Origin: a virus
Virus record (IMG/VR): IMGVR_UViG_3300007177_000160
Location: 1-64,000 of that record
DNA: 64,000 bases
Reading direction: 5' to 3' (one strand)
Positions 12,572 through 59,480 of the stretch are shown piece by piece. Within the stretch, counting starts at the first letter, position 1. Each line of letters opens with the position of its first letter. A program made the position numbers and the translations under genes. The notes below the pieces were generated by a model. It ran no database searches. It was not told the origin of the DNA and was given only the letters and a program-made list of their open reading frames with translations.

Positions 12572-15500
12572 TTAAAAAACGTTAACAATGATACCATTTT
12601 GAACATCAATGTTAATCGGAGGTAAAGGAGCGGGTTGTTGGATTGTTACTGTTCCTGAGTATCCAGCCACGCTACTCAATAATCCACTTGTAGAAATTAC
12701 GGGACCGTCAGCTTCTGCATCTAGTTGGGCTAAGTAAAGATTACCTTGGGAGTTGATGTAGGCTTTCTGCGTGCCGTTCTCTTGCCACTCTTGGATAAAG
12801 TGTGCAGAGTTTCTTTGGTTAACAATAAGAGCCTTACCTCCACTTGCAGGACTAGTACGGATAATTAATCCGTGATAAGCATCCATCTGTGCTGCGCTGC
12901 CATGAGTTGTGCTTATACGGTGATTAGAATCTCCTCCGTATTGGAAGTGTAAAGTTTGACCTGCACTTAGGCCGTCAAAACCAAACACACGACCATTAGC
13001 GGAAGCCACATAACTATCTCCGTTAGACCTAAACGAACCGTTTACGTTAAGTTTGTATCCACTATCAGTAGTTGTTCCAATAAGTAAGTTCCCACCGCGC
13101 TTAAGAGTCATAAGTGTAGTACCAGCAGGATAGTCCCAAAGAAAATCTCCAACTGTTGGATGTCCTAGGAAAAACTGCATACTGGCATCAAATCCTCTGT
13201 AATACACGATACCATTAGTTCCTGCATACACACTGTTGTTACTACCGATGTCTAAACTTCCGTTCATAGTAAATGAACCCTGTGTAATCAAGTTACCTGT
13301 TACTCTAAGCCCACCGTAAATTTTGTTCTCTGCTGTTCCATTTAATCCGTAAATTTCTACGCCACCTGTTCCTCCGTTGTATAGGTTGATGTAGTTTCCG
13401 TTAATTCCGTAGATGTAGCGGTTACTTGCATCAGTCATAGACAAGTTGCCACGAATAATTGTATTACCGTTGACATCTAGTTTAAATCCTGAATCAGTTG
13501 ACGTTCCAATAGTGACGTTTCCGTTGGCTTTAATGTGCATTTTGCCATCAGTAACCCACGCGTTACTTCCATCAGCTACGTTATTAGTCGCAAAAATTAA
13601 CTCCCCACGTCCGTAGTTAGCTGTCCAGTTGTAGAAAATAGCAGTCTTACGCGCGTAACTACCCATGTAAATACCTGAAACACTTCCGCTCCCTTCTGAA
13701 CTATTTACTACAGATATTGCTCCCCCAAGCGTACCAAACTTGTCTGCTGATACGGTAAGTAGAGCATCAGGGTTGGTAGTACCAATACCTACATTCCCCC
13801 CTGGAGTAATAATCATTTTGACATCTGCAACACCTACACCTGGATTTCCTGAAGTAGCATTGTTTAAACAGAAATACAAAGCAGACCTTGACCAACTACC
13901 GACTGCTGCCGCTATAATTGCTGTTCTAGGTAAAGTAGAACTGTCGTAAGCAGTGTTAAAGAATAAACTTACGTTTTGATTTTCAGCTAAACTACTTAGA
14001 TGTACTTGTAAATTAGTTCTTCTTATATCAAAGTTATAAGCGGGACTAGCAGTGTTAATGCCTATGTTACCTGAGTTATCAATAACCATTCGGGTTTTGC
14101 TACCTGTAGTATAAAGATCAGTAGTAGCAAAGTACATCTTGGTTCCATAACTACCGTCACTTCTTACGTAAATACCTGCCTGTGCGTTATCTCCGTCCGA
14201 GTAATCACTTGCCCCAAAAGTGATAGCATTACCGAAGTTATCTGTACTTACTCCTGGATCTAGGTGTATGGTTCCAGGCGTTTGTCCTGGAGTAGTTTCA
14301 TTCCAGTTTGCTGACCCCCCAACGATGTTTAGCTTAGCTACAGCAGAGGTAGTGCCGATACCGACGCTTCCAGAAGTAGTAGCAAAGTATGCACTGTTTA
14401 CAGAACGAAGTGTGCCGTTAACATCAAACTTGTATCCATAATCTATGTTTAATCCTACTTGTACGTTTCCACCCAATAAAGAAAGCGCAGGTATGGTGTC
14501 AGAAAAAGTATTTACGTAAAAATATAAAGCTGTTCTAGATTGAATGACTAAGTTCCCAAAAGGATTTGTTCCGTAAGCTTGAACCGTAGTAATGGTGCCG
14601 TACGTCATGCTTCCATCGTCACTCTGAAAACTGATATTTGGATAAGCACCTCTTAAATTGACATAAGGGAAAGTTCCTGTAATCCGAGTACCTCCTACAA
14701 CATGTAAAGGTGTTTCAGGTGCACTGGTTCCAATACCAATGTTTCCATTGGACAACATTGTCATCACACGCGTAGAGTTCGGTAAAAAGAACCCGTCTGC
14801 CAACTTAATGTCCAGTCTTGTTCTGGAAGAAGTTCCAAAATTCTCAAATCGAGAAAGTTCAAATACTGCAGCGGCACCAAATGCCTGACCTGCGGTACCC
14901 TGACGAGCAAGAATCAGTACTTCTTGCGGATCGTTAAGGACAGAAGCCGAAGTTTGTGTTTGGTTAACAAACATCGCTGCACCCGACGTGTAGGCGTAGT
15001 TGTTATCGTCGATAACTTTTGCACCTGCTTGCAATAACACACTGGGAGATGTGGTTCCTATACCTACTCTGTTCGTTGTTGCGTTAACAAAGAAAGTATT
15101 CGTGTCTACGGTAAAGTTACTAGTTACTACTAAATTAGTAGCAACGTTTAATTGATTAGCAACATACGTGTTACTGCCGTCAAAAGAAAATACAGGGGTA
15201 CTACCAGAATAAGACTCAATTAAAAACAGCATTGCTGTCCTTGACGAAATAACCAAGTTACCCCAAGGATTTCCCGTTTTATCCTGTGTTGTATAAAGAC
15301 CACCAAAAGTTACAGCTCCGTCTTCAGACTGTAATACGAATCTAGGATATCCTCCACGAATCAACTGAGTTGGGAAAAACTGTCCAGCTGCTCCGTTTCC
15401 TTGTAGCAACAAAAGACCATCTGCTCCCTGTACGTGCAGTTTTGCAAATGCAGTAGTAACACCAATTCCTACTAACGTATTTGCATTAGTAGCTAAATAA

Positions 15501-18500
15501 CTATTACTGGTAGCTCGGAAGCTTCCGTTGACATCCAGTTTATACCCAGCGTCAACCGTCGTATTGATTAGTACATTTCCGTTACCATAAATTCTAAAGA
15601 GGTCATTATTTCCCCAATGACCCATCGTAATAAAGTTACTGTCAGATCCAGCACCTGCCCAATAGTAACCAAAGTATCCACTATTTTTTAAGCTGGGTGC
15701 TTGTCCTATGACTAAAATGTTACGCTGACCACTTGTCAGGTTAGCAGCAATGTTTTCCTGACTATGTACATAATCTCCAGAATTAGAAGAGTTAACTCTT
15801 AGTGTTGGGTTCCCTGCTGTTCCCGAAGTAGAAATAACTAACTGACCAGTCATTGTGTCCCCCGTAGTGTTTACCCAAACATCAGAAACTGAGGTTAAAT
15901 AACCTGCGGTTGCATGGTTGCCCCAAGAGTATGCAGTGTTCCAGTTAGAAATATTTGTAGTAGTAATAGCTTTTACATGGGACGGGACGGTAGGGTCAGT
16001 TTCTGTAAATGAAGTTAGGTAGCCAGCAGATGCGTGATTTCCCCAGCTAAATGCAGTATTCCAGTTTGTAGAAGTTCCACCAGTAGCGCTGATTGACCCA
16101 TTTACTTGAAGTTTGTTCGTACCGTTGTCAGTACTCGACCCAATAAGAACGTTACCTGTACTAAAGTTACCTTCAATTAATCCTGCGTTATTTCTGTTAC
16201 CTAAAATAAACCAGTTAGATTTAGTCGAGTTTAAACCTGCGTCATATCCTATAAATACGTTATCTCCTGCAGTAGAACTTCCGCCAGCACGAAAACCTAA
16301 ATAAACACTGTACCCTTGAGTTAATGTGGAAATTCCTGAGCCTCCGCCAGCAAATGCACCTACTGCTACAGTCTCTAAAACATCCATAGTTGAGCCAGCA
16401 GCATCGCCAAGAAACGTATTACTATATCCTAAATCTACCTTAGCTCCTGCATCTACGCCTACAAATACATTAGATCCTCCTACTGTAAGATTCCCTGCTG
16501 TTTTTTGTGTTTTTCTCCCTGCACCTGTACCAATAGCTATGTTACGATAAGAAAAAGCAGATTCATTTAAGGCACTATCACCTAGTGCAACAGTTTCACT
16601 TGTTGATGTAGCAACTGATAAGATATTTCTACCAAATCCAAAAGTATTAGCTGCAAGCGAAATATTATTAAAGTTATTATTTCCTACAGAATATACAGAG
16701 TCGCTATTTGCTTTTATAGTTATGTGCGTAGATACGGTTATATTAGCTGTGGTTGTATTTCCAGCTGCTGTAACCTGTGCTAGGGTAGGAATAGGCGCAC
16801 TAGTCAAATACCCCTGAGCAGTTACCCAGCTTTCTGTTGCAATATTCTGCCAGGCTGTACCATTGTATAGTAAGTTTTTGTTATTGGTTATGTCGTAGAC
16901 TTGTAAACCAGTTGCAGGAGTAGCGATAGCCACTGCCTGTGCATTAATCATGCGAGGTTGTAGAAAACCAAAAGAAGTACTTCTGATTTCAAACATAGCA
17001 GAAGCATCTGCTGTACCAAAGTTGGTATCAATCACCAAAACACCTGCACCACCCAATCTTCTAGAAATTATTCTAGACATCCTCTCAATTGCACTAGAAT
17101 AAATAGTCATACCGATTATATTAAAATCAGTCATAATTTGGATAGCACCGTCTGGTAATTCTCTAACCCCTAAAGTATAATTTCCCGCACTAGGACCTCT
17201 TAGTAATAATGAACCATTATCTCTTAGTTGCAGTATGTTCGTGTTTGTACTATCTTGAACCAAAAAAGAAGTAGTAGTTGAAGTCGTTCCTGTTCCTTTT
17301 ATGCGAGTACCTCCATTTACGTCTAATTTAAAACCAGCATCAGTGCCCTGATTTATTAATACGTTTCCTGTGTCTCCTAGAATTCTAATAGAAGTACCAT
17401 CTACACCTATTCCTAAGAATGAGGGAGTTTGGGCAATTCCTTGACTATAGGAGTGCATTATTTTAAATGTAACTCCTGGAGTATTTTGTCGAGTAAAATT
17501 AATAGATGTTGTTGCACCCCCATTAGCAAATAAGTTAATGTATGGACTTTTATCTAATCCTACGCCTCCTATTTGAACTCCAGAATAATAAGAAAATGCG
17601 CCAAATAATTCTAGTGCATTTCCTGTAGTATCTAACGTAGAGCGAATTGCTCCAGAACTTGTAATTGCACCGACACTAATACTGTTTGTAGTTGTGTTAC
17701 CTGCTGTAGTTACCTGAGCTAATGTTGGCGTAGCAGGAGTAGGTAATGCTCCATAAGTAAGTTCTCCTGTAGTTGTGTTGTAGTATACTTGGTTTGTTTG
17801 TGTTGCGTTGGTTAGTCCCTGGTGTATTACTTTACCTACTGTTGTTTCTATAGCCCTAAAATCAGCTGCAGCAGTAATAGTTGGATTTACGTACAAACCT
17901 CGACTTATTCCACTCGCACCTCCTGTTTGGTTAATAGTTTGGTTTAATGTTAAGGCATTGACTACAGCTGTCCCACTAGTAGGAGCAAAAGTATGAGTAA
18001 TACGTTGGGTATCATGGGTTCCTGATGTAAGTGTTAAAGTAGCGTTAGGTCTAACCACCAAGACCTGTGCTTTATTTGCAATGACTTCTATTGTTACGTT
18101 GGTAGAATCTGCCCAAGGTGCCGATATTGTTAGATTTTGGTTGACTCTAGCTTGTAGTCCCAGAGCCACTACAGTATTAGTTGTAAAATCACTCTGAGTA
18201 GCTGTAATTCCTCCAACATCACTTACTGTAAATAAAGAGTTGCCTAGAGAATTTAATACGGTAAAAGCATTAGTAGAACCTGTAAAACCTGATCCCCTAA
18301 CTGTCAATGAATTAGTAGCTGAACCAGTAACTGTCACGTTACCTGAGAATCTACCTGTACCATTAACGTCTAATTTAAAACCTGCGTCAGTCGTTGTACC
18401 AATTAAAACGTTTCCTGCACCATTGATTGTAAACAACCTGACAAAGTTTGCTGTGCCTGCAGTCGCTGCCGACCTATAAATAGCAAACATATCAGTATTT

Positions 18501-20968
18501 GCAGTCTCATAGTTGAGACCCATAATCCAACCAGGCTGTGTAGTATCTTGATGAACCCAGGACGATGAAATATCACGCACAATGTTTGCCATCATGCTAA
18601 TTCCTTTATATCCAGTACCAGTCTCTGGCATTATAGAAGAATTACTGTTACCTACAAATATTGCAGGATATGCAGCTGAATTGGTATGTCTAGAAGGAAG
18701 TGTTGTACCAAACAACATGTTCTTACCAGCAGATGTAGATAGATCTCCTTGAATTCTTGCAGTTCCATTTACGTCTAACTTAAAGCCAGCATCCGTAGTA
18801 GTTCCTATTAGAACGTTTCCAGAACTTGTCGCTAGTTGTACGCCAGTTGTATTAGAAAACGTTCCAGTCACAGCAACACCTGCAGTACCAACACTTAAGC
18901 GTTTTGTTCCGCCTGTACCTAATCCTACTTCATATAAACCCTGTATATAAGTTGATCCTTCAGTAGTTAATGCGCCCGTTCCGCCAACAAACTCAATGAA
19001 GTTTGATCCTCCATAACCAGAAGTATCAAATTGTCTAATACGTGTTCTACCGCCTGTTACCTGGGTGTTTAACATAGTGACAATTATACCCGCACCTCTG
19101 TTGACACTTGCACTTCCTCCTGGATTTATCACACGTAAAAGGTCCGTATCTGTTGTTGCTGTTTGAATGTCTAAATCAAATGTCGGAGCAGAAACACCAA
19201 TACCTAAACGCTTGTTTGTATTATCATAAAGTAATCCAGTACTTCCTCCAACTCGTAAACCATAATTGGTAACACCCGTAAATGCACCATTGGTAAACGT
19301 AGGATCTATATCCAAGCCTACTAATACATCATTGTTAGCAGCAGCAACTAAGGTATTGTTAAAATACACTCCTCTTGCAAGTGCTGAGGTTGCTGTAACA
19401 CTGCCTACAACACTCAAAAAAGAATTACTCCCTTTTGTTAAAGATGGTGAATTACTTATTAAAAGACCGTTTGTAGCAGCTAAATGATTGTATAACCAAC
19501 CATAAGTAACCCATCCGTAAGCAGTATTGTTGTAAATTCTGTTAGACGCATCGTAAAATACACCCGAGCTAGTACCTTGTCCTACTTGAATAGCACCCCC
19601 AGCTGTATTAATACCTGCAGGCGCAGTTATTAAACCTACACTGCGCATGGTTCCATTTACATCTAACTTGTAACCCGCGTCTGTGAAAGTACCTCCATTT
19701 TGAATTAATACATTCCCAGAACTAAATATTTTAAAATCTGGATTTCCGTCAGAAGTCCTATTATGTTGAAATGAACCATCGTTATTTAATTGTAATAAAA
19801 AATAATTAGGAGTTGCTCCTTGATGGAAGAAACCAAGATAATCTCCTGTCCTGTGATATCCTATGGTTGCTTTATTAACAGAATTTATTTGAAATCCAAA
19901 ATTAGCATTTCCAGTACCAGTATTATTTACCATAAAGGTAAAGTTGCCACTACTTGTATTAGTGACTGTTAGTATAGGAGATGTAGTAGAACTTGCACCA
20001 ACTATATTTGTAATACCGTTTACAGTCAACCCACCAACAGTAATACTATTCATAGTAGTGTTCCCAGCAGAAGTTACTTGGTCTAAAGTAGGAACAGAAG
20101 TTAAGAAGTTAGGAGTCCAGTTCTTCCAGAGACCGTCTGAGTCTCTACGAAGAAGTTGGCCTGTAGATGGAGCAGAGATAAGAACATCGTGGATTTCGTT
20201 TAACTCGAATCCGTTCTGTACTTTTACAAAAATCTCTCCGTTGTTATTGTTTACGCGAGTAACAACACCCAAAAACACCATATGGGCAGGTGCTACAGGC
20301 TTGTTTGCTAGACCATAAAGCAGGTTCCCGTTAGTGCCTAACCATACAAGGTCGCCTAACGTAGCCATTGAGGTATCTAACCCAGTTAGTAGGCCTTCTG
20401 TAATTACAAAACCTTTACCGTTAAGAGCAAGATCCTGAGCAATAAGACCCATAGTCTTACTGGAAGTCATCTCAGAAGCGTTAGAAGCCTTTGTAACAAT
20501 CATGTTTGTACCGTCCGATGACGAAACATACACAGCCTGTCCTCTCAAAAGCACCTCACCTGCTTTGACTTCGTGTTTAACAGTAGAAGTCCACTGTGCG
20601 TAGTTATCAATCCACTCTACATTATAATCAGTATTATTAATCTTTGCTAAGATTTGCCCTGTTGAACCACCTGGAGGTAGGTTTCCTCCTGCTGTAGCCA
20701 CTGATTTCCAGGTTCCGTCATCAGCCAAGTAAAGATTTCCTGTACCAATAGCTCCTGTACCCAACCTATTGGGGTCGATGATACCTGTAGAAATATAAGC
20801 TGCGTCAAATAATCGCCATCTTACAGGACCTGCCTGAGTAGCAGGAGGTACCAAAAAGTAAGCAGGCGGCATATATAACTCATTGGCACTGCCATCTCTA
20901 GGATGTAAGGGATTATATCTTGCTAAATCCTGTTGTTCTTGAGTAGTTATGGGATTGCTATAAGGCAT
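12572..20968 (-). CDS. Giant modular tail fibre (2798 aa)
   Basis: About nine GNVLIGTTTDAGFKLDVNG-type repeats, several GNVGIGTT.P...L.V repeats and three PTL.QVT.AGNTT repeats; G/T/N/S-rich. Confidence 0.9.
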   Translation of the reverse strand: MPYSNPITTQEQQDLARYNPLHPRDGSANELYMPPAYFLVPPATQAGPVRWRLFDAAYISTGIIDPNRLGTGAIGTGNLYLADDGTWKSVATAGGNLPPGGSTGQILAKINNTDYNVEWIDNYAQWTSTVKHEVKAGEVLLRGQAVYVSSSDGTNMIVTKASNASEMTSSKTMGLIAQDLALNGKGFVITEGLLTGLDTSMATLGDLVWLGTNGNLLYGLANKPVAPAHMVFLGVVTRVNNNNGEIFVKVQNGFELNEIHDVLISAPSTGQLLRRDSDGLWKNWTPNFLTSVPTLDQVTSAGNTTMNSITVGGLTVNGITNIVGASSTTSPILTVTNTSSGNFTFMVNNTGTGNANFGFQINSVNKATIGYHRTGDYLGFFHQGATPNYFLLQLNNDGSFQHNRTSDGNPDFKIFSSGNVLIQNGGTFTDAGYKLDVNGTMRSVGLITAPAGINTAGGAIQVGQGTSSGVFYDASNRIYNNTAYGWVTYGWLYNHLAATNGLLISNSPSLTKGSNSFLSVVGSVTATSALARGVYFNNTLVAAANNDVLVGLDIDPTFTNGAFTGVTNYGLRVGGSTGLLYDNTNKRLGIGVSAPTFDLDIQTATTDTDLLRVINPGGSASVNRGAGIIVTMLNTQVTGGRTRIRQFDTSGYGGSNFIEFVGGTGALTTEGSTYIQGLYEVGLGTGGTKRLSVGTAGVAVTGTFSNTTGVQLATSSGNVLIGTTTDAGFKLDVNGTARIQGDLSTSAGKNMLFGTTLPSRHTNSAAYPAIFVGNSNSSIMPETGTGYKGISMMANIVRDISSSWVHQDTTQPGWIMGLNYETANTDMFAIYRSAATAGTANFVRLFTINGAGNVLIGTTTDAGFKLDVNGTGRFSGNVTVTGSATNSLTVRGSGFTGSTNAFTVLNSLGNSLFTVSDVGGITATQSDFTTNTVVALGLQARVNQNLTISAPWADSTNVTIEVIANKAQVLVVRPNATLTLTSGTHDTQRITHTFAPTSGTAVVNALTLNQTINQTGGASGISRGLYVNPTITAAADFRAIETTVGKVIHQGLTNATQTNQVYYNTTTGELTYGALPTPATPTLAQVTTAGNTTTNSISVGAITSSGAIRSTLDTTGNALELFGAFSYYSGVQIGGVGLDKSPYINLFANGGATTSINFTRQNTPGVTFKIMHSYSQGIAQTPSFLGIGVDGTSIRILGDTGNVLINQGTDAGFKLDVNGGTRIKGTGTTSTTTSFLVQDSTNTNILQLRDNGSLLLRGPSAGNYTLGVRELPDGAIQIMTDFNIIGMTIYSSAIERMSRIISRRLGGAGVLVIDTNFGTADASAMFEIRSTSFGFLQPRMINAQAVAIATPATGLQVYDITNNKNLLYNGTAWQNIATESWVTAQGYLTSAPIPTLAQVTAAGNTTTANITVSTHITIKANSDSVYSVGNNNFNNISLAANTFGFGRNILSVATSTSETVALGDSALNESAFSYRNIAIGTGAGRKTQKTAGNLTVGGSNVFVGVDAGAKVDLGYSNTFLGDAAGSTMDVLETVAVGAFAGGGSGISTLTQGYSVYLGFRAGGSSTAGDNVFIGYDAGLNSTKSNWFILGNRNNAGLIEGNFSTGNVLIGSSTDNGTNKLQVNGSISATGGTSTNWNTAFSWGNHASAGYLTSFTETDPTVPSHVKAITTTNISNWNTAYSWGNHATAGYLTSVSDVWVNTTGDTMTGQLVISTSGTAGNPTLRVNSSNSGDYVHSQENIAANLTSGQRNILVIGQAPSLKNSGYFGYYWAGAGSDSNFITMGHWGNNDLFRIYGNGNVLINTTVDAGYKLDVNGSFRATSNSYLATNANTLVGIGVTTAFAKLHVQGADGLLLLQGNGAAGQFFPTQLIRGGYPRFVLQSEDGAVTFGGLYTTQDKTGNPWGNLVISSRTAMLFLIESYSGSTPVFSFDGSNTYVANQLNVATNLVVTSNFTVDTNTFFVNATTNRVGIGTTSPSVLLQAGAKVIDDNNYAYTSGAAMFVNQTQTSASVLNDPQEVLILARQGTAGQAFGAAAVFELSRFENFGTSSRTRLDIKLADGFFLPNSTRVMTMLSNGNIGIGTSAPETPLHVVGGTRITGTFPYVNLRGAYPNISFQSDDGSMTYGTITTVQAYGTNPFGNLVIQSRTALYFYVNTFSDTIPALSLLGGNVQVGLNIDYGYKFDVNGTLRSVNSAYFATTSGSVGIGTTSAVAKLNIVGGSANWNETTPGQTPGTIHLDPGVSTDNFGNAITFGASDYSDGDNAQAGIYVRSDGSYGTKMYFATTDLYTTGSKTRMVIDNSGNIGINTASPAYNFDIRRTNLQVHLSSLAENQNVSLFFNTAYDSSTLPRTAIIAAAVGSWSRSALYFCLNNATSGNPGVGVADVKMIITPGGNVGIGTTNPDALLTVSADKFGTLGGAISVVNSSEGSGSVSGIYMGSYARKTAIFYNWTANYGRGELIFATNNVADGSNAWVTDGKMHIKANGNVTIGTSTDSGFKLDVNGNTIIRGNLSMTDASNRYIYGINGNYINLYNGGTGGVEIYGLNGTAENKIYGGLRVTGNLITQGSFTMNGSLDIGSNNSVYAGTNGIVYYRGFDASMQFFLGHPTVGDFLWDYPAGTTLMTLKRGGNLLIGTTTDSGYKLNVNGSFRSNGDSYVASANGRVFGFDGLSAGQTLHFQYGGDSNHRISTTHGSAAQMDAYHGLIIRTSPASGGKALIVNQRNSAHFIQEWQENGTQKAYINSQGNLYLAQLDAEADGPVISTSGLLSSVAGYSGTVTIQQPAPLPPINIDVQNGIIVNVF

Positions 20969-21051: not shown

Positions 21052-21543
21052 TTAATCTGCTTGCCACCAAAACTTAACAGGCTTGTCGGATACTTCCCCA
21101 ACGATGCCTTCAGAGGAGGCAGAAACCAGCTTAACAACAGTCAAACTATCCTTAGTGTAGCCTCCTGTTACGAGTTCTCCTACAAGATCCCCTGCATAGT
21201 TAAAGTCTTTGGCGTAAACCAAGACAATACGAGCTACATTTTGTTTCCACATAGGCACCAAAGCAGTAAACATAGCTAGATATTTTTCTTTAATTTCTGC
21301 GAGATCTGATTCGTTTGGAATATCGATCGAAATAATGTTAGGGATAAGTTTCGGAATAAGTTTATCTGAAGCTACTAACGAGTGAGCAACCCGCATAGCC
21401 AAAGAACTAGAGTACTTAGGACCTACGCAAAAAATCGCACAGTCTTTAATAGACTCAAATTTCACCTTAGAAGAAACCTCTAAACAAACCTTCTGTATAA
21501 GAGACTCTTCTCTTTCTCTATCTAATAATAAAACATTCTCCAT
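21052..21543 (-). CDS. Hypothetical alpha/beta protein (possibly a degenerate PRTase-like fold)
   Basis: 163 aa with alternating beta/alpha pattern; fold call is weak. Confidence 0.5.
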   Translation of the reverse strand: MENVLLLDREREESLIQKVCLEVSSKVKFESIKDCAIFCVGPKYSSSLAMRVAHSLVASDKLIPKLIPNIISIDIPNESDLAEIKEKYLAMFTALVPMWKQNVARIVLVYAKDFNYAGDLVGELVTGGYTKDSLTVVKLVSASSEGIVGEVSDKPVKFWWQAD

Positions 21544-21550
21544 ATGCAGA

Positions 21551-21568
21551 CAAAGATAGTTAAATTTG
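21551..21568. promoter_or_regulatory. Back-to-back divergent TAnnTTTG promoters at the strand switch
   Basis: CAAAGATA (minus strand TATCTTTG) at 21551 and TAAATTTG (plus strand) at 21561. Confidence 0.65.
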
Positions 21569-21575
21569 AAGTAAG

Positions 21576-22274
21576 ATGATAAAGGTTATCTTTGACCATA
21601 TAGAAGGCTTTGGTAAAATCACCGAGCAAGACTTCATCTACTCAGATCCCAAAGGAATCGCTGTAGGCAAGGACTATGTTGACTATTTAGAGAGTGGATG
21701 GGTAGAGTGGGGAGTTTACTGGTACAATTTAAGATCTGTTCGACTAGATTTAAGAAAGTACGAAGCCAGCAAAACGACGCGAAAGCTAGCCAAAAACATT
21801 AAATGTAATACTCATCGGTTAACTTCGGAGATTATAGAGCAGTTAGAACCTGTTTACGCCCAGTACATAGAGAAGCATAAGTTCCAGCGAGAGATAAACC
21901 TAAAAGACTTTTTAGACACAGAGGACTTTTTTGTCCTTCTCTACTACAAAGAAGAAGAACTGATAGGCGCGTTGATTCACAAAGTGTACGAGCAAGGCGA
22001 AAAAACCGCATTTGTATCTTATCAGTTCCTATGGGACTACAAAGAACCCAAACTATCTTTAGGTAATATCTCTCAGATGTACGAATCCGAACTAGCAAAA
22101 CTAATGGACTGTGACTATCTTTACATTTTAGGAGGCTACGAAGAATCCTGCATATACAAATCCCAGTTCAGAGGATTTGAATGGTGGACAGGAAAAGAAT
22201 GGTCTACTGATATCTCACTTTATACTAAACTATGCCAAAGAGACTCGCATGCACATATACGAACCCCACAATAG
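21576..22274 (+). CDS. Aminoacyl-tRNA-protein transferase-like protein (ATE1/Bpt C-terminal GNAT family)
   Basis: SVRLDLRKY..SK..RK, Y..Y...H, WDY..PKLSLG......E..A......YLYILGGY...C.YKSQF.GFE match the ATE_C pattern. Confidence 0.75.
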   Translation: MIKVIFDHIEGFGKITEQDFIYSDPKGIAVGKDYVDYLESGWVEWGVYWYNLRSVRLDLRKYEASKTTRKLAKNIKCNTHRLTSEIIEQLEPVYAQYIEKHKFQREINLKDFLDTEDFFVLLYYKEEELIGALIHKVYEQGEKTAFVSYQFLWDYKEPKLSLGNISQMYESELAKLMDCDYLYILGGYEESCIYKSQFRGFEWWTGKEWSTDISLYTKLCQRDSHAHIRTPQ

Positions 22275-22455: not shown

Positions 22456-22625
22456 AATTTTTTCCTACCCCCCCCAATTTTTTTTCTAACCCCCTACCCA
22501 ATTATATCTATGGGAGCTTGGGGGCCAAAATTTTTCTACCCCTGGGACTGAATCAGATCTACGAGAGTTTGGGGGTGTCCAAATTCATCAGCCCCCTATG
22601 CCTTTGGCGGACACGGTGTCCCCCA
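22455..22625. repeat. Low-complexity repeats AAATTTTT(T)(C)CTACCCC x3 and GAG(C/T)TTGGGGG x2; candidate terminus/packaging region
   Basis: Seen at about 22455, 22476 and 22527, and at about 22514 and 22565. Confidence 0.6.
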
Positions 22626-22642
22626 CTTACATATATACAGAT

Positions 22643-23062
22643 ATGACAAAAACCACTACCAACGTTGGTGATGTTCAGGAGAATATCGACAATGCGTCCG
22701 CAGTAGACGAAACTACTACAAACTCTGTACTTGCTAACCTTGGTAACTCAAGAGACGAGAGCCGAAAGCAGGGAGAGTTGAAAACCGAATCAATCGTTAC
22801 TTGCGTTGAGGTTATACCTACCAAGGGGTCTAACGCAGGTAGGCAGATGTTTGTCATTAACGGCAAGCATTGGTCTCGTCACAAGCCTGCGGATACCGAC
22901 AATACCGTTGTGCTTGAGTTTGCGACTTGGGACGGTGGTTCGGGTTGGAACGTTATCGGTTTCAATCAGGACGCTCGTGTGATGAGTATTGACGCGAAGA
23001 TTGCCAAACTTACGGCTCACGATGCGGCTTACTCTCAAGCGATTGCTTTGTTGTTACGCTAA
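22643..23062 (+). CDS. Hypothetical protein, isolated, GC-richer codon usage
   Basis: Probable start ATG 22643 after CAGAT; followed by a strong UUCG terminator. Confidence 0.75.
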   Translation: MTKTTTNVGDVQENIDNASAVDETTTNSVLANLGNSRDESRKQGELKTESIVTCVEVIPTKGSNAGRQMFVINGKHWSRHKPADTDNTVVLEFATWDGGSGWNVIGFNQDARVMSIDAKIAKLTAHDAAYSQAIALLLR

Positions 23063-23068
23063 CCGATT

Positions 23069-23098
23069 GGGGCAGGGCTTCGGCTCTGTCCCTTTCTT
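23069..23098 (+). terminator. Intrinsic terminator
   Basis: GGGGCAGGGC-TTCG-GCTCTGTCCC-TTTCTT. Confidence 0.85.
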
Positions 23099-23213: not shown

Positions 23214-24101
23214 GTCGTTTTCTTGGGTGTTACACTTCTCTAAAACCTGTGTAATAATCGTAGAAATTGTACTTCAGCTCCAGCTCTCGGCTAAAATCAG
23301 TGTATTTTGCAGTTTTGTTTAACTTTTTTGGTCTAACCCCCGTAAATTTGGAGACCTTTAAATTAAAAAGTTAAACAAAATGACAATTCAATGACACAAA
23401 TTGAGGTAAAAAAGGGTTAAAAAGTGGGGATTTTCCCCTCTCAGTCCTTTAATTCTTTCCTAAAAACAAGTCATTTGGTTGAGGCTTGACGTATAGAAAT
23501 AAAGAGGATTCGGTTAAAAGAGTCAGACAGATGGGCTTAACTGGGTTTATTATCGTCTCTATTGTTCTTATCTCTCCCTCTCCTTCTCTCTCTCTTTTCT
23601 CTTTCATTACCTCTTATTAAGGTAATGAACTAATCAGTGTTATGCGCGGGTTTCGGCTCCTGCTCTCTATTGATTCTTTATTAATTCTTTATTGATTCTT
23701 TAAGGTTGATAAACCTTGACATGCCTATGGGGCTACTATGTTGTTCTTCTATTAAGGGTAGAAGTATCAAGCTTAAGCGAATTTCCTTGCTTAAAGCAAT
23801 GACAAGTTAGTGCAGACTTAAAAATTAGGCAGTCTATTACATCTATTATCGTATGATGTAAAGACTTTAAAGACTGGTAACAGTTACGATACAGTATAGA
23901 GAAACCACACTATACTTTATGCCAGGTTTGTGGTGAACCTGAATTTAGAATGTTCTATACGTATTAGTATAGACTTCGGTTTAGTAGGGGGTGTGCATCA
24001 GCTCTGAAATGTTAGGCGACATTTCTGCTACTAGATTTATTTTAATTTAAAAACTAAAAAGGGATATCAGCCGTATCCCGAAGTCCTCAAATAAGCAGAT
24101 T

Positions 24102-27365: not shown

Positions 27366-27626
27366 ATGAACAACGTAAATGATTTGCCAATGATGGCAGA
27401 AGCACCAGAACCAGAAATGGAAAAAGTATCTGAGTACAGACCTTCAAACAATGAAGCTCTCCGTGAGTTTGAAATCAACATTAGATTTTTAAGCAGAGGA
27501 TGTGTTGTAAGAGTAGGATGTAAAGAAATTGCATTTGAAAATCACACTAATGCAATGGCAGCAATTAATGCTTATGTTGCTAATCCTTGGGAAGAACAAC
27601 AAAAATGGCGTAAAATTTTAAACTAA
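27366..27626 (+). CDS. Hypothetical protein
   Basis: 86 aa; GCVVRVGCK motif. Confidence 0.75.
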   Translation: MNNVNDLPMMAEAPEPEMEKVSEYRPSNNEALREFEINIRFLSRGCVVRVGCKEIAFENHTNAMAAINAYVANPWEEQQKWRKILN

Positions 27627-28024
27627 TGAATGAAACAGCAGAATTTAAGGGCACTCAAGAAGAATGGGAAGCCTTAGTAGAGAAAAACTATCTTATTGGT
27701 ATTGCAAAAGTGTGTCATCAAGCAAACAAAGCCTATTGTGAATCTCAAGGGGATTTATCACAACCTGATTGGGCAGATGCTCCTGATTGGCAAGTACAAT
27801 CAGCAATAGCAGGAGTTGTCTTTAGGCTAGGAAATCCTGATGCAGGACCAGATGCTATGCACAATAATTGGAGTGCAGACAAAATTGCTGATGGATGGGT
27901 CTACGGAGAAGTAAAGGATGTAGAGAAAAAGACTCACCCTTGCTTAGTTCCATTTGACCAATTACCTTTGTTTCAGCAAAAGAAAGACAAACTATTTAGT
28001 GCTATTGTAGATGCACTAAAGTAA
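27626..28024 (+). CDS. RyR domain-containing protein
   Basis: HNNW...K..DGWVYG..KD..KKTHPCLVPFDQLP..Q..KD. Confidence 0.9.
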   Translation: MNETAEFKGTQEEWEALVEKNYLIGIAKVCHQANKAYCESQGDLSQPDWADAPDWQVQSAIAGVVFRLGNPDAGPDAMHNNWSADKIADGWVYGEVKDVEKKTHPCLVPFDQLPLFQQKKDKLFSAIVDALK

Positions 28025-28328: not shown

Positions 28329-28398
28329 AGTCAGGTGGCGTAATTGGTAACGCCTTGGTTTATTACAAGAGATACGAGTTCGAGTCTCGTCCTGGCTG
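28329..28398 (+). tRNA. tRNA-like RNA with aberrant anticodon arm (identity undetermined)
   Basis: AGTCAGG/CCTGGCT acceptor, GCGT/ACGC D stem and ACGAG-TTCGAGT-CTCGT T arm are intact; anticodon arm is CTTG-GTTTATTA-CAAG (4 bp, 8-nt loop). Confidence 0.7.
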
Positions 28399-28509
28399 CG
28401 AGAACTGCCTACACAGTTCGGGTTTTCATCATATTGATTTTTTTTTGATTAGTGAATTAAGGCCTTGTAGGGGGCCTTTTTTATTATCAGTACAATTAGT
28501 ATAATCGAT

Positions 28510-29343
28510 ATGATTAAAATTCAGAAAACTAAAACCTTACAAACAAAAGATAACGACAACAGTGCAAACTGTATTGCGCCTAATCTTATTTACGGATGCT
28601 TTGGTGGATGTGTATCGACATATTGCTATATGGCTCGCTACAACGAAACTCGAGTATTTGTAAACACTAACGTAGATGACATCTTTAACTCTGTTGTAGA
28701 ATGGGAAAAGAATTACGTCAAAGAACCTGACCAACAAGATCCCGTTTACACAATGGTAGATATCAGCTGTAATACAGACTTAGTTCTTATGCAGAAACAT
28801 CTACCTGAATCCTTACACGATTATCTTAAACGATATGATAATCATCCCAGGCTGAACTCTACGATGGCTACTAAGTATCCAAAATTATTAACCTTAGACG
28901 TTAATCATTTTAATAAAAAGCCAAGAGTTAGAGTTAGTGTTATGCCACAACCTTATGCGGATATCCTGGAACCTAAAATGCAGCCTATTTCAGAACGAAT
29001 CAAAGATATTAACAGGCTCAAAGATTTAGGTTGGGAAGTCCACATCAACTACAGTCCGCTTATATTCTATCCTAAATGGAGAGAATACTATGATTTTTTA
29101 TTTAAAGAAATCAAAGAAACAGCGGGCGAGAACAAGTGCGAAGTAATAGCTTTAACTAATCACGAAAGACAAATGGCTAAAGCATCACCTCAAGCACAAG
29201 AACTAATGAAATATAGTTGTGAAGTCAAGAACTCTTCTGGAGTAATGAGATATCCTATTCAACACAAAGGAGAAGCTCTGGAAGAATTTAAGCGGATTTA
29301 CAGCCAGTATTTCGACTTAGACACCATTAGATACATTTTTTAA
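28510..29343 (+). CDS. Spore photoproduct lyase-like radical SAM protein
   Basis: IAPN..YGC.GGC..TYCYM.R, DISCNTD, ATKY, RVRVSVMPQ...LEP.....ERI, VHINYSP. Confidence 0.85.
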   Translation: MIKIQKTKTLQTKDNDNSANCIAPNLIYGCFGGCVSTYCYMARYNETRVFVNTNVDDIFNSVVEWEKNYVKEPDQQDPVYTMVDISCNTDLVLMQKHLPESLHDYLKRYDNHPRLNSTMATKYPKLLTLDVNHFNKKPRVRVSVMPQPYADILEPKMQPISERIKDINRLKDLGWEVHINYSPLIFYPKWREYYDFLFKEIKETAGENKCEVIALTNHERQMAKASPQAQELMKYSCEVKNSSGVMRYPIQHKGEALEEFKRIYSQYFDLDTIRYIF

Positions 29344-29886: not shown

Positions 29887-30774
29887 ATGGCAAACTCAAA
29901 AATCGCAAGCACAAAAAAATTAATTAAAGACATCGTAGTAGACAAAGAAACTAGTCGTAAAGAAAAAATTACTGACGTAGAAAAAGCCTACATCACCTAC
30001 CAAACAGCTATTAGCATTGATATAAACTATCCATTAAAGAACTTACAGTTTATACCAAGTTCTATTCCATTGGGTAGCTTAGATGGCTTACAGCGTCCTG
30101 TAATTACTGCACACGGTAACACTTTAGCTAAGTCTATGAAAATGATGGGCAACATTCGTCCTATCATTGTGACTAAACTAAAAGAAAAGAACGGAAAGTA
30201 TAAGTTCTATGTGTTAGACGGTCAGCACAACTATAATGCATTGCTTAGTTTAAAAGCAGAAGAAATTCCCATTGTAGAGATAAGCACAAAAAGCACAGCA
30301 AACCTGGTAGAAACTATTGCATTGCTTAACTCTTCGTCTAAGTCTTGGAGTTTAAAAGATTATGTAACTGCTTGGTCTAATATCCATTCAGACTACGGTC
30401 TGTTAAAAAGATTGTACGACAAGTATGACATCGAGTTAAGTATTGTAGCTGCTGTGTGTACAGGTGCTAACTTAGGTAGTGCTACACCTGCTACTAAACT
30501 AATTAAGTCAGGTGAGTTCCGTATTTTTAACTTATCAGAGTCTGAACAGAAACTATCAGATATTAATGAAATTTTGAACGAATTACCTCGTATGGATAGA
30601 GCAGCTAATCGTTATTTTATTTTATCTTTGATAAGCGTATTTAACGAGATTAAGTACGGAAGAAAAGAACACAACAAACTATTAGACTACGTAAAAAATA
30701 ATCGTGAGATATTAAAGTTTGCGTTAAACAACGTAAACGAGCTCAAAGAATATCTTTTACAAGCATTTAACTAA
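29887..30774 (+). CDS. ParB/Srx-like N-terminal domain protein
   Basis: RPIIV...VLDGQH..NAL...LNSSSKSWSLKDY. Confidence 0.7.
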   Translation: MANSKIASTKKLIKDIVVDKETSRKEKITDVEKAYITYQTAISIDINYPLKNLQFIPSSIPLGSLDGLQRPVITAHGNTLAKSMKMMGNIRPIIVTKLKEKNGKYKFYVLDGQHNYNALLSLKAEEIPIVEISTKSTANLVETIALLNSSSKSWSLKDYVTAWSNIHSDYGLLKRLYDKYDIELSIVAAVCTGANLGSATPATKLIKSGEFRIFNLSESEQKLSDINEILNELPRMDRAANRYFILSLISVFNEIKYGRKEHNKLLDYVKNNREILKFALNNVNELKEYLLQAFN

Positions 30775-31850
30775 TGACACGCGAAGAGATTCAACAACAA
30801 GCACTCAAGGAAATCTCTAAACATCATAGATGCGGCATAGCGGTATCCATGGGGGTCGGTAAAACTTATATCGGCCTCCAGTATATCGCTGAGCATCTTA
30901 TTAACGGAGAAGTTCTTGTAGTAGCTCCTAAACGAGATATTTTTCAGTCCTGGATAGACGATGCAGGTAAGTTTGGATTATCAGACTTACTAAAGCATAT
31001 TACATTCACGACATATATCTCATTAACTAAACATAATCCAGAAGATTACTCTATTGTAATTCTGGATGAAGCTCACACCACTAAAGGTTCTCATACAGAG
31101 TTTTTAGATCACTATAAAGGCAGGATTCTCGGTCTTACTGGTACTCCTCCTAAATGGTTACAGTCTGAGAAAGGCATAATGATGCAGCGTTTTTATCCTA
31201 TCGTTTATTCTTACAGAGTAGAACAAGCTGTCGGTCACAACATCTTAAATGATTACCGCATATTTGTACACAAAGTACAGTTAAACGAAGCCAACACTTT
31301 AGAAACTAAACAAGGTTGGAAAACCAGCGAAAGAAAAAACTATGAGTGGTTGCGCAGACAGATAGAAGACGCTCCTAACGATAAGCAAGCTTTCTTTAAA
31401 CAGATTATGTGTATCAATGCTATCAAACAGTACCAAAGCAAAGAACAATATGTAAAGAAATGCTTATCGCTTATTCCTGAAAGTGAGAAATGCTTGATTT
31501 TTGCCAATACAATTGAACAGGCAGAACGTCTATGCGAAAACTCTCACCACTCAAAGAAAAAGAACTCCGACGACTTAGATGATTTCAAAAAAGGCAATAT
31601 AACAAGATTATCTGCTGTGGAACAATTAAGTGAGGGTGTGACTATTCCTAATCTTAGGCACATTATTATTATGCATTCTTACGGTAACGAGAAAAAAGCA
31701 TCACAAAAAATAGGCCGAGCATTGCGCCTAAACCCTGAAGAAGTATCAAAAATTCACGTACTAATGTATGAGAACACCATTGATGAAAAATGGGTAAAGC
31801 GTGCTCTTGAAGAATTTAATCCTGAAAAAATCAAATACACAACTATTTAA
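30774..31850 (+). CDS. SF2 (DEAH) helicase
   Basis: MGVGKT, DEAH, GLTGT, LSEGV, QKIGRALR. Confidence 0.92.
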   Translation: MTREEIQQQALKEISKHHRCGIAVSMGVGKTYIGLQYIAEHLINGEVLVVAPKRDIFQSWIDDAGKFGLSDLLKHITFTTYISLTKHNPEDYSIVILDEAHTTKGSHTEFLDHYKGRILGLTGTPPKWLQSEKGIMMQRFYPIVYSYRVEQAVGHNILNDYRIFVHKVQLNEANTLETKQGWKTSERKNYEWLRRQIEDAPNDKQAFFKQIMCINAIKQYQSKEQYVKKCLSLIPESEKCLIFANTIEQAERLCENSHHSKKKNSDDLDDFKKGNITRLSAVEQLSEGVTIPNLRHIIIMHSYGNEKKASQKIGRALRLNPEEVSKIHVLMYENTIDEKWVKRALEEFNPEKIKYTTI

Positions 31851-31851
31851 A

Positions 31852-32157
31852 ATGGAACTAACAAGATTAACACCCGAAATGCTTCCCGAAATGGGATTCA
31901 GAAAAATAAGTTACATAGACGAAGACACCAATAAAGAAGTCTTCCATTACGAACTTCCGCTTAGTAAGACTACTTACCAAGATTTTATACTAATCTCTAA
32001 TCCCAATGACGAAGAAAATTTTCCAGTTATTCAGTTTTGTGGAGTAGACGAGTACGAAATCAAGCACGTAGAGCCCTTGGTTCTTTTAATTAATCTCTTG
32101 CAGAGTTGCTGCGTAGTAGATGAGTTTGTTATAGATAAACAATTTTCTGATGAGTAA
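31852..32157 (+). CDS. Hypothetical protein
   Basis: Probable start MELTRL. Confidence 0.7.
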   Translation: MELTRLTPEMLPEMGFRKISYIDEDTNKEVFHYELPLSKTTYQDFILISNPNDEENFPVIQFCGVDEYEIKHVEPLVLLINLLQSCCVVDEFVIDKQFSDE

Positions 32158-33694
32158 TAAACACATAAAACTATACACAGAAGAACAAATGAGACAAGCA
32201 TTCAATTGCGGTAGTTTATATTTAAGCAGGGAAGGCGATACAAATTTTCATCAGTTGATAGACAAACTAACACCCATTGAACTACCAAGTGATGAGGAGA
32301 TACGAGAAGAGAGATTGTTACAATTTCCCGATTCTGAATATGCTAACAGGGCAAACGATAGACTTGCCTTTTTATGTGGAGCAAAATTCGTAATAAACAA
32401 AATACAAGGAGGTAACAAATGAGCAACAATAAACAAAGTATGACAAATAATAAACCACACGGATTCTGTGAAACTCCAGAAGAAAAATGCACAATGAATT
32501 ATTGTGATGAAAATGGATGTGTCAACAGAAAGAGAAATCTTGTAGGAGACGGAGACCCAATTGATACGAGCAACTATAAACTAAGTAGCGTATATGCAGT
32601 AACGGGAGTAGATCACGGGTCAATAGTTACCGCAATGAATGAACAACAAGCCATTGAAATTTTTCAAAAAGTTTATAATGGTGAAGAGATTATTTGCGTT
32701 AAGGATATTTCAAATTATAATTTAGAAAACTTATGAGCAACAATAAGCAAAGTATAAAACTATATACAGAAGAACAGGTAATAAGAATTGCAAAATTATA
32801 TAGACATGAATTATATGTATTATATGCAGCAATGAAAACTGAAACCCCCATCGAACTACCGAGTGATGAGGAGATAGAGGAATATGCAGATAGTGTAATG
32901 CCTTATGCAGAAAAAATAGGGGGAGAAACATATACTGCGTATAGAGCAATTAAACTAGGCGCAAAATGGGTGTGTAAAATAATACAAGGAGGTAACAAAT
33001 GATTTGGTTACTTGGTATTGTATGCATAATTGTCCTAGTTGGAGTACTTTCTGTTGACAATAAAAAACAAAAAGACTTGTTCAGCTTTCTAGTGTCTTTG
33101 CTTATGACTTTATGTTTTTTACTTGGTGTTTTAATGGTAGACGAAGTGGGTATAAAATCAGATAAACCACTTACTCCTTCCGTTAGAATTGAGTGTAAAG
33201 ACGGTAAGTGTGATACTACCTACATTTACATAGGAGATAACAAATGAGCAACAAAAAAAGTAGCATAGAGTACTACATCGTAAACTTGATTAATATACTT
33301 GGAGATGAAATTTGCAACAAAATTACTATTGAACAAAATAATAAGATTGTAATTTTAGAAAAACAAGCCAAAGCAATGCACAAGGAGGAGAAAAAACAAG
33401 TACTCAAAGATTATTTTGCTTGGCATAAGTCAAAAGGATTTGTAAGTCATAAAAAAGAAGATATTGAAGAGTTTATTAACGAAACATTTGAAGGTAACAA
33501 TGAAGATTAATCCAATAATTGCAGCACTTTTAACAATGGTAGGGATATACCTATTGATATCATTTGCCATATGGGAACTAAATGCTAAATACTGGAAGAC
33601 AGAAGCAAGGGTAATGTATGCTTTGTTTGCTCCAATATTTGCAGCATTGATGTATTCATCAGTTAAAGTTTGCAACAATCAAAATTACAAATGA
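32150..33694 (+). repeat. Array of six small overlapping genes joined by shared junction repeats (AATACAAGGAGGTAACAAATGA / ATGAGCAACAATAA)
   Basis: ORFs 32150-32422, 32419-32736, 32733-33002, 32999-33247, 33244-33510, 33500-33694; starts MSNNKQS/MSNK, ends IQGGNK/IGDNK/EGNN; PIELPSDEEI occurs twice. Confidence 0.8.
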
Positions 33695-41441: not shown

Positions 41442-42818
41442 ATGTATTCATTAAATCAATCTTATGATAAAGTTCTAGGTAGAACTGTCATCGAAGACTT
41501 TCACGTTGACTTTGCTACGCTAAACTCTATCATGTATAAACAATCCCCTACTTATAACGAAGTTCTAAATAGAGAGAAAGCACACTTTTTGACTGAGCTT
41601 ATCTTTAATCTAACAGGGGTAAAAGCTACTACAGATGCAAGAGGAAATCTTTATTTTGTTAAAGGCACTTCAGACTTGTATCCCACTATTGTAGCTCACT
41701 ATGACACTGCTCAAGAGTATCATCCAGGACTTACTATTCAAAAAGCAGGAGATTGGTTGTATGGTTTTGACATTACTACAGGTACTCAGTGTGGTATAGG
41801 TGCAGATGATTCTGTCGGTATCTATTTTGCTATTGAGATGTTGAAACGTCTTCCTGTATGTAAAGTAGCGTTATTTTATGGTGAGGAAAGAGGTTGTATC
41901 GGCTCTAGTAGTTGCGATATGACTTTCTTTAAAGACTCTCTGCTAGTAAGCCAGCTTGACAGACGCTCTTTCCAAAATGACTTTATTGTCCACACTAATG
42001 GAGTTGAAGTATTTCCAACCCATTATGTAGACGTAATTCAAACATTCTTGGATAAGTATGACTATACCCCAGCTAATGGTAGTTGTACTGACGTAGGTGC
42101 GTTACGTAGGGCTGGATTACAAGTTGCTTCTCATAACACAGCATGCGGTTATTTCAACGAACACACAGACGAGGAAGTTATTCACATCCCTTCTATGATT
42201 AATGCAATGTCTATGGTTTATGAGATTCAATCTTATTTACTCGAGAACAAACTTCAATTAGAGTTTCCTTATGTTCGGTTTGTTGAGCAGAAATCAATTT
42301 ATGCACAGCCGTGGGTTTCTGCTTTTGAAGATAGACTTGACCAGACTAGATTCAGCGATTCTTTTTATGACATAGATGAAGTAGGGACTGGAATTAGTAA
42401 AACAGCAAAACAGTACGCTGACATAAACCATGTTCTTACTGACTTTCCTAGTATAGAAGAGATAGAGTGGCAATTTGACGTAGTAGAAAAAGACCTTACT
42501 TTAGCTAAAGTTAAATCAGGTCAAACTCCTGTATCTGCTTACGTAGCTTATACTAGTATAAGTTATAACGCCAGAACTAAAGAAGAACTTTATTTAGAAG
42601 ACTACGAAATTAGAGACGCACTACTCAACGAAAAACCCCACAAAGGAATGAATGCTTGCTGTGTAAAAGATTACCTGTATAACATTCCTTTTAACCTAGT
42701 AGAGTGTCAAACTTGTGGAAGTGGTTATCATCTAGAATTTACCGCAGAAGATGTCTATACTTTACCTGACGACAGTTTTCAAACACTGGACGAGTGGGCT
42801 GAGATGTACGGCTACTAA
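41442..42818 (+). CDS. M20/M28-family zinc peptidase-like protein
   Basis: VAHYDT, GIGADD, GEERGCIGS, LDRR, GSCTDV, GYFNEHTDEE. Confidence 0.85.
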   Translation: MYSLNQSYDKVLGRTVIEDFHVDFATLNSIMYKQSPTYNEVLNREKAHFLTELIFNLTGVKATTDARGNLYFVKGTSDLYPTIVAHYDTAQEYHPGLTIQKAGDWLYGFDITTGTQCGIGADDSVGIYFAIEMLKRLPVCKVALFYGEERGCIGSSSCDMTFFKDSLLVSQLDRRSFQNDFIVHTNGVEVFPTHYVDVIQTFLDKYDYTPANGSCTDVGALRRAGLQVASHNTACGYFNEHTDEEVIHIPSMINAMSMVYEIQSYLLENKLQLEFPYVRFVEQKSIYAQPWVSAFEDRLDQTRFSDSFYDIDEVGTGISKTAKQYADINHVLTDFPSIEEIEWQFDVVEKDLTLAKVKSGQTPVSAYVAYTSISYNARTKEELYLEDYEIRDALLNEKPHKGMNACCVKDYLYNIPFNLVECQTCGSGYHLEFTAEDVYTLPDDSFQTLDEWAEMYGY

Positions 42819-48199: not shown

Positions 48200-49171
48200 T
48201 GGAAAAACTATTAAACATACCAGATGATTGGTATAGTAAACTCAAGCACATCGTAGAGTCAGATTATTTCAAACAACTCTCTGCTTTTATTAAACAGAGA
48301 AGATCCGTTACTGCTGTATTTCCACACAGCAACGAAGTATTTAGAGCATTTAATGAAACTCCATTTGGGAAGATACGCTGCGTCATTATTGGTATGGATT
48401 AAAGAAATTTGCGTATAAATTAATACCTTACGCAAATAGGGTCCATGTAAAACGGGGAGAATTGCTGGAACATCCTAACAAGGACAATCAGCAGCCGAGC
48501 TTAGACAGTAATGTCTTTGAAGGTTCAACGACTAACAACCGAGTCCTACCAGATAATACTGAGGACAGTAATGTTGACACGAGCACCCTGCACTAATTTA
48601 ATTAGTGATGATATAGTCTGAACTATATAGTAATATATAGAAGTGTATGATAAAGAACTTACACGATAACACAATGCCATACCCAACCCTTTACAATGGA
48701 CAACCAGTAGCTTGTGGGCTAGCATTTGCACCTAGATACAAAGAATTTGTACCTCCGTCTCTTAGAATGATTTATAAAAACCTCAAGGACGGTTTATACA
48801 AAAACGATTTAGATTGCCCAGAAACTCTAGATTTTACTAGTTGGGCACAACAAGGTGTATTCTTACTTAATGCAGCTCTTACAGTAGAGCATACTAGAGC
48901 AGGTTCACACCTAAAACAATGGGCTCCATTTACAGAAGCAGTAATTAAAGCTATCTCAGATAATTCATCTGGAGTTATCTTTTGTTTCTGGGGTAAAGAT
49001 GCTCAACAATACAGACAATTTGTAAACCATAGTGCACATTACGTTCTACTGGCACCGCATCCTGTATCAGCTGTATACAAAGGTGGTACGTGGGACTGTC
49101 ACCACTTTGAAGAAGTCAACGAGATATTAAAAAGAAATAATGGAGAAACAATCCAATGGCTGAGTTCCTAG
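48199..49171 (+). CDS. ung: Uracil-DNA glycosylase, split: exon 1 48199-48399, exon 2 48677-49171 (231 aa spliced)
   Basis: Splicing restores VIIGMD|PYP; also GLAF, PPSLR, WAQQGVFLLN.ALTV, SH...W, FWG..A, HP.S. Confidence 0.92.
48400..48676 (+). mobile_element. Group I intron (277 nt, no ORF) in ung
   Basis: 5' exon ends in U and pairs with the IGS (ATGGAT/GTCCAT, U-G pair); P AATTGCTGGAA, Q AATCAGCAG, R TTCAACGACTAA, S GATATAGTCT; terminal omega-G at 48676. Confidence 0.93.
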
Positions 49172-59440: not shown

Positions 59441-59478
59441 AAAGAAAACCCAGTCTTAATAGGCTGGGTTTCTTTTTT
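59441..59478. terminator. Bidirectional terminator at the convergence point
   Basis: AAAGAAAACCCAG...CTGGGTTTCTTTTTT. Confidence 0.85.
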
Positions 59479-59480
59479 CG

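Follow-up and report, generated by a model that had tools for sequence, protein, structure and literature searches.

We found that an uncultured freshwater phage encodes, at positions 21,576 to 22,274 of the DNA analysed here, a homologue of the aminoacyl-tRNA-protein transferases ATE1 and Bpt, followed by a small and strongly conserved β-barrel protein. The DNA (the window) spans the first 64 kb of IMG/VR record IMGVR_UViG_3300007177_000160, a viral record of 114,265 bp with direct terminal repeats. ATE1 and Bpt enzymes take the amino acid of a charged tRNA and attach it to a protein. The best explanation of the viral protein, to which we assign a probability of about 0.55, is a virus-specific, minimal aminoacyl-tRNA-dependent transferase of the ATE1/Bpt superfamily, probably with arginine as donor, with the barrel as its substrate or targeting subunit and with an acceptor that is not the classical Asp/Glu N-terminus. 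A sequence-only reading had recognised an ATE1/Bpt-like protein and proposed a possible viral N-degron writer paired with a viral transfer-messenger RNA (tmRNA). Our results support the first part of that interpretation and do not support the pairing with the tmRNA, and the reading overlooked the barrel partner.

The pattern on which the sequence-only reading had based an ATE_C assignment is present in the transferase (SLG at residues 161-163, YLY at 181-183, LG at 185-186, C192, Y194-K195, F198 and E202). Pfam ATE_C (PF04377) matched residues 96-202 over profile positions 8-119 of 122 with 27.1 bits (E 7e-6, cut-off 25), and with 27.9 bits in a repeat run, while ATE_N (PF04376) gave no match in the Pfam scan. 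Residues 53-212 also matched five NCBIfam Bpt ('arginyltransferase') models (E 6e-6 to 2e-3), with scores far under the equivalog cut-offs. When a profile of the viral family was compared with all PDB sequences, it matched ATE1 only (E 5e-7), and hhalign aligned the family with six canonical proteobacterial Bpt proteins over 183 columns (96% probability, E 3e-9). The AlphaFold model was confident (predicted local distance difference test score (pLDDT) 87, predicted template modelling score (pTM) 0.83), and its ten top Foldseek matches were all ATE1, not FemAB proteins or acyl-CoA GNATs. Only ATE1 aligned with the predicted model along the whole chain, the N-terminal domain included, suggesting an ATE1-like fold throughout. 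Profiles and fold thus agree with the earlier claim of a phage-encoded ATE1/Bpt-like protein. The transferase belongs to no PHROG family, and no protein or DNA relative was found among 50,697 annotated phage records.

To locate the functional residues, positions from the mutagenesis of Kluyveromyces lactis Ate1 (klAte1; PMC9351520) were carried over through HMMER and hhalign alignments and counted in 87 close homologues and 94 distant ones from the wider radiation. In klAte1, Tyr303 and Lys304 are catalytic, Glu277 binds arginine in the donor pocket, K112-K123 form a basic helix that holds the acceptor end of the tRNA, and Arg80 is essential for acidic N-termini (PMC9351520). The catalytic pair corresponds to Y194 and K195, which are found in 87/87 close homologues; among the 94 distant ones the Lys is kept in 93 and the Tyr in 78. 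Trp260 corresponds to W153 (83/87 close homologues) and Ser273 to a Ser or Ala at position 166 in the family. Glu277, an Asp or Glu in ATE1, corresponds to E170 in every close homologue and in 76 of the distant ones, whereas the Leu-transferring Bpt has Gln189 there. Because this invariant E170 stands at the place of the arginine-binding Glu277, the donor would most likely be a basic aminoacyl-tRNA, probably Arg-tRNA. The helix at residues 66-72, in the basic segment SKTTRKLAK, aligns with SRSQRRNWQ of Bpt; single basic positions vary, and by its position the helix should match the tRNA-binding helix of ATE1.

Other hallmarks of the superfamily are gone. The Cys4 metal site (zinc or iron-sulphur, Zn/Fe-S) is absent: an 8-residue deletion takes out two of the cysteines and a third aligns to Leu52. 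There is no Cys before residue 76, as expected from the earlier remark that the N-terminal Cys motif of cellular enzymes is not visible, and no Cys is invariant across the family. The arginine pair of the GFRRSG motif, to which Arg80 belongs, is replaced at positions 43 and 44 by Ile, Val or Leu and by Pro or Glu in the 87 homologues, with one Arg in total. Since both the metal-binding cysteines and the GFRRSG arginines are lost, the protein is not a canonical ATE/Bpt member. As judged from its sequence, the catalytic centre of this homologue is intact, its donor pocket has a Glu as in ATE1, and its acceptor side has been rebuilt. In the mechanism that we propose, a GNAT-type core with the Tyr-Lys dyad would catalyse transfer from an aminoacyl-tRNA, the E170 pocket would take a basic aminoacyl-tRNA, most likely Arg-tRNA, the barrel would serve as the substrate or the targeting subunit of the enzyme, and the acceptor would be other than the classical Asp/Glu N-terminus.

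The barrel gene overlaps the end of the transferase gene (Table 1), and this arrangement is conserved: a same-strand open reading frame (ORF) of 63-76 amino acids (aa) follows the transferase in 74/76 related loci, its start overlapping the transferase stop by 4-38 nucleotides (nt). Conservation of the barrel is far above that of the enzyme (67-82% identity where the enzyme has 43-86%), and the residues E5-P6-x-N8-R9 near its N-terminus are invariant. The protein is predicted to adopt a five-strand SH3/Tudor/KOW-like fold (pLDDT 78.7) with generic structural matches only, and it has no PHROG family. In a reverse test on the best 80 of 275 viral contigs encoding the barrel, 62 loci had the transferase directly upstream and 18 did not. 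Furthermore, four complete genomes (113,975, 124,635, 128,711 and 61,434 bp) have the barrel and no transferase anywhere, a search for which a positive control was run. The dependence is therefore one-sided, as expected of a barrel that is a substrate or a targeting subunit of the enzyme. Together, these results suggest that the barrel is probably the target or the targeting subunit of the transferase.

Some barrel loci have features of their own. Rare forms of 128-156 aa (P0259-P0262) carry a short C-terminal tail with a C...CxNCG...H motif, possibly a small metal-binding knuckle, and the longer forms add nothing beyond this short Cys/His-containing tail. In barrel-only loci (L128, L134, L141, L150 and L185) the barrel gene lies amid numerous genes for very small proteins that are rich in Lys and repeat an x-x-G-G motif. 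There, the barrel is followed by a conserved protein of ~80-90 aa that starts with MAK..AWQRKEGK and ends with KKWKC, and one neighbour is homologous to the product of 90434-90616 (-) of this genome.

The transferase family is large and effectively confined to viruses. A word-indexed search returned 87 clusters of 221-246 aa with 30-100% identity to the transferase, several of which JGI had automatically named 'arginyl-tRNA--protein-N-Asp/Glu arginylyltransferase'. When 1.84 billion representatives were searched with a profile, 617 matched at E <= 1e-3 and 205 still did so at the stricter E <= 1e-10. Relatives are encoded on at least 515 IMG/VR contigs, some of them genomes of 100-130 kb. Among prokaryotes (one genome per species, 185,579 species) we found only seven matching loci, all on contigs of metagenome-assembled genomes (MAGs), and for this reason we regard the family as virus-only in effect. 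One of the seven is a phage-sized contig of 117,852 bp binned with a Chitinophagaceae MAG. Five MAGs with family members were searched for a canonical ATE_N and yielded none; no longer, fused form of the transferase was found, which counts as weak evidence. In a FastTree phylogeny rooted on Bpt, the clade of the window's protein (99% local support) was nested in a deep viral radiation, separate from proteobacterial Bpt and from Cys-less Chitinophagaceae ATE_C proteins in a tree whose branches are long and whose deep order is uncertain. These cellular proteins (224-253 aa, in 5/41 Chitinophagaceae genomes) are without the Bpt Cys cluster, have GWYRM... in place of GFRRSG and fall between Bpt and the viral radiation as a separate clade.

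The portal protein has its closest annotated relative in Leptolyngbya phage Lbo-JY46 and the next ones in crAss-like Bacteroides, Cellulophaga and Flavobacterium phages, with 25-30% identity in each case. Because of these relatives, a crAss-type major head protein encoded with the portal, and an ORF of 4,714 aa, we regard the virus as a distant crAss-like phage. A Bacteroidota host is our best guess. The transferase family is common in freshwater crAss-like phages.

The companions that the sequence-only reading had assigned to the transferase were examined across related phages. The tmRNA and the peptidase that it had listed are both encoded in the window. The expected co-occurrence with tmRNA (RF00023) failed, with 2/19 related transferase-carrying records positive (G001 and G018) and none of the five records that are at least 90% complete. 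As the cutter of such a system the peptidase was rejected, being present in only 3 of 11 ATE-carrying records, in the nearest clade. The GroES also listed was not recovered: no Cpn10 match was found in this genome, and 58505-58780 gave a sub-threshold GroES-like-fold hint only. Of the 'atypical tRNAs', just one was confirmed as real and atypical. Its anticodon arm consists of a stem of 4 bp (CUUG/CAAG) with a loop of 8 nt, GUUUAUUA (6 nt according to ARAGORN); it may be a suppressor-like tRNA or one without a decoding role. In relatives, a tRNA-Leu(taa) is found about as far from the transferase. The genome has tRNA-Glu, tRNA-Met and this one odd tRNA, and no tRNA-Arg. A dedicated donor tRNA was likewise rejected: any tRNA lay within 10 kb in only 34/80 loci (Arg-tct 9, Leu 14, Met 7, Glu 6), and none recurs as a fixed neighbour of the transferase. 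In the reading that we prefer, the window's tmRNA, tRNAs and peptidase are separate accessory genes and do not make up one system.

We also searched for the degradation machinery. Neither ClpP nor ClpS (PF02617, E <= 0.1) was found in this genome. ClpS scored above the Pfam cut-off in 4/19 related records and in the binned phage contig. In these relatives (G004, G005, G009 and G010; L099-L102, at about 1490-2000 in each locus) it is 84-86 aa long, comes directly after the counterpart of this genome's helicase (30774-31850), lies ~10-13 kb away from the transferase gene, and is followed by a conserved ORF of ~90 aa. It looks like a separate accessory module. At the corresponding site this genome has unrelated small genes (31801-32736). 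In the candidate host family Chitinophagaceae, ClpS was found in 37/41 genomes and the L/F-transferase Aat in 30/41, often adjacent, whereas the cellular ATE_C protein described above is rare (5/41).

These data bear on three other explanations. In the classical N-degron writer, Leu or Arg would be placed on N-terminal Asp or Glu of host or phage proteins, marking them for degradation by ClpS/ClpAP, while the tmRNA tags the other protein end. Homology to Bpt/ATE1, the tmRNA in the window, the ClpS of some relatives and the ClpS and Aat of the candidate host family would all fit this proposal. We nevertheless consider it quite unlikely, as the arginines needed for acidic N-termini are unconserved, this genome is without ClpS, ClpP or Cpn10, the ClpS of relatives sits far off beside a helicase with a small neighbour gene of its own, and neither tmRNA nor peptidase accompanies the transferase consistently. 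The enzyme could instead be a tRNA-dependent transferase whose acceptor is not a protein: it might modify a precursor of the cell wall as FemX does, a lipid of the membrane as MprF/aaPGS do, or a small molecule in the manner of Sbb17. This is also unlikely: sequence profiles match ATE1/Bpt only, never Fem or DUF2156, the alignment that includes the N-terminal domain is with ATE1 alone, the transferase has no membrane domain, and the gene regularly found next to it encodes a small soluble protein rather than a cell-wall or lipid function. Finally, the protein might be a pseudoenzyme, a non-catalytic tRNA- or protein-binding module that sequesters a charged tRNA or some host factor, with the barrel binding alongside it. 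Loss of the metal site and acceptor pocket would be compatible with this, whereas the close and distant homologues keep, with few or no exceptions, the Tyr-Lys pair and the Glu of the donor pocket, as well as the basic helix apart from variation at its single positions. Such a pattern is typical of an active enzyme and makes a pseudoenzyme very improbable.

Several points weigh against the reading that we prefer, a minimal transferase with the barrel as substrate or targeting subunit. The ATE_C score is just 2 bits over its cut-off and identity to ATE1/Bpt is 13-19%, and we infer the activity, the donor and the acceptor alike. A single aligned Glu carries the case for arginine; the rest of the donor pocket, at positions 148, 166 and 182, is small or hydrophobic and more Bpt-like. 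An invariant Arg53 could compensate for the lost acceptor-pocket arginine. Overlapping genes and co-occurrence are no proof that transferase and barrel bind each other. The N-terminus of the barrel varies in length (MIYEP, MHIYEP, MTIFEP, MKTVIFEP), which argues against its alpha-amino group as a fixed acceptor. In addition, the ClpS genes of some relatives may point to a link with degradation.

A tentative extension of the preferred reading, on balance unlikely, is that the transferase adds Arg from the host's charged tRNA onto the barrel or a barrel-bound host protein, so that the phage steers chosen proteins to ClpAP without an acidic N-terminus. Where the host has Aat and ClpS, as do most Chitinophagaceae searched, an Arg attached to the N-terminus would count as a secondary destabilising residue; because both proteins are common in the candidate host family, such an Arg could feed the host pathway.

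Table 1 Features of the transferase locus and companion genes of the window
Feature	Position	Strand	Remarks
Divergent intergenic gap, 32 nt	21544-21575		TAnnTTTG at 21561-21568 (+) and 21551-21558 (-); possible Bacteroidota-type -7 elements
Compact ATE/Bpt-superfamily aminoacyl-tRNA transferase homologue, Cys-less at the metal site, 232 aa	21576-22274	+	Open ORF, ATG start
SH3/Tudor/KOW-like β-barrel protein, 68 aa	22249-22455	+	Start overlaps transferase stop by 26 nt
154-aa ORF	22598-23062	+	No Pfam or PHROG match; own cluster in neighbourhood table; not conserved in relatives
Terminator-like GC-rich hairpin, then T run	23069-23092	+	Pattern scan; 10-bp stem, 7 GC pairs; consensus match only
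tRNA-like gene, abnormal anticodon arm	28329-28399	+	Rfam 45.7 bits
PHROG 'peptidase'	41442-42818		Weak M28 hint
Phage tmRNA	59478-59848	-	Rfam 73.9 bits, ARAGORN; 24-residue acidic tag ending MAA

The transferase gene starts at a strand switch, where the sequence-only reading had placed a promoter of its own. The divergent gap does hold one TAnnTTTG per strand, each 7 nt from its ATG, but a promoter is unproven: the window contains 87 copies of the motif against 82 expected, which is no enrichment, so the pair is a consensus match only, and a sigma-70 promoter scan gave nothing upstream of the transferase ORF. Downstream of the barrel, the 154-aa ORF is possibly the third gene of the transcription unit and the hairpin its possible end. 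Contigs from RNA libraries (three libraries, two studies) span the transferase and the transferase-barrel junction, which indicates presence in the library, not transcription, transcript starts or levels.

Further features lie around the locus. Just upstream of the transferase is a repetitive, Gly/Thr/Asn-rich, tail-fibre-like ORF of 2,798 aa (12572-20968, -), with one 163-aa gene (21052-21543, phrog_29004) in between. A Hatchet ribozyme match (23696-23830, +; 73.1 bits vs gathering 51, full model 1-133) lies in DNA that seems to be non-coding, ~1.2 kb downstream of the barrel, and a group I intron match was found at 48386-48640 (+; 70.3 bits vs 50, full model). The tRNA cluster is flanked on one side by a RyR-domain protein (27626-28024, +; Pfam 47.9 bits) and on the other by a spore-photoproduct-lyase-like radical-SAM protein (28510-29343, +; 66.9 bits).

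A full-text literature search on viral aminoacyl-tRNA-protein transferases, phage N-degrons or a phage ClpS pathway, one query of which was garbled by the search engine, found no paper. What is new here is a virus-only ATE/Bpt variant that has its acceptor side remodelled and a small protein as its dedicated partner, and whose target is probably not an acidic N-terminus. If active, the enzyme would represent a new route by which a virus modifies proteins with the host's charged tRNAs, and it would offer a compact, metal-free scaffold of 232 aa in which to study or engineer tRNA-dependent protein tagging.

Among the known systems, FemX/FemABX and MprF/aaPGS are GNAT transferases that depend on aminoacyl-tRNA; no sequence-profile similarity to the viral transferase was found, the N-terminal domain does not align, and their acceptors are peptidoglycan precursors or lipids. 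Bpt (ATE_N + ATE_C; NCBIfam PRK01305), the Asp/Glu leucyl-tRNA-protein transferase, resembles the viral protein in size (~240 aa) and domain order and has G41, R56, Y183, Y194, K195 and W209 in common with it. Its HECSYLP, GFRRSG and CxxCxxC motifs are not conserved in the virus, and its Gln189 stands where the viral protein has Glu. ATE1 (8TZV, 7WFX/7WG1, 7TIF, 8E3S) is the best match in profile and fold along the whole chain, and it shares with the viral transferase the Tyr-Lys dyad and the equivalents of Trp260, Ser273 and Glu277 (PMC9351520). ATE1 is, however, ~500 aa long and has a C-terminal region that is absent in the virus. Unlike ATE1, the viral transferase lacks the Cys4 Zn/Fe-S site and an Arg80 equivalent, and its family has a C-terminal GFEWWTG...W...LC.RD segment of its own, a virus-only range and a barrel partner.
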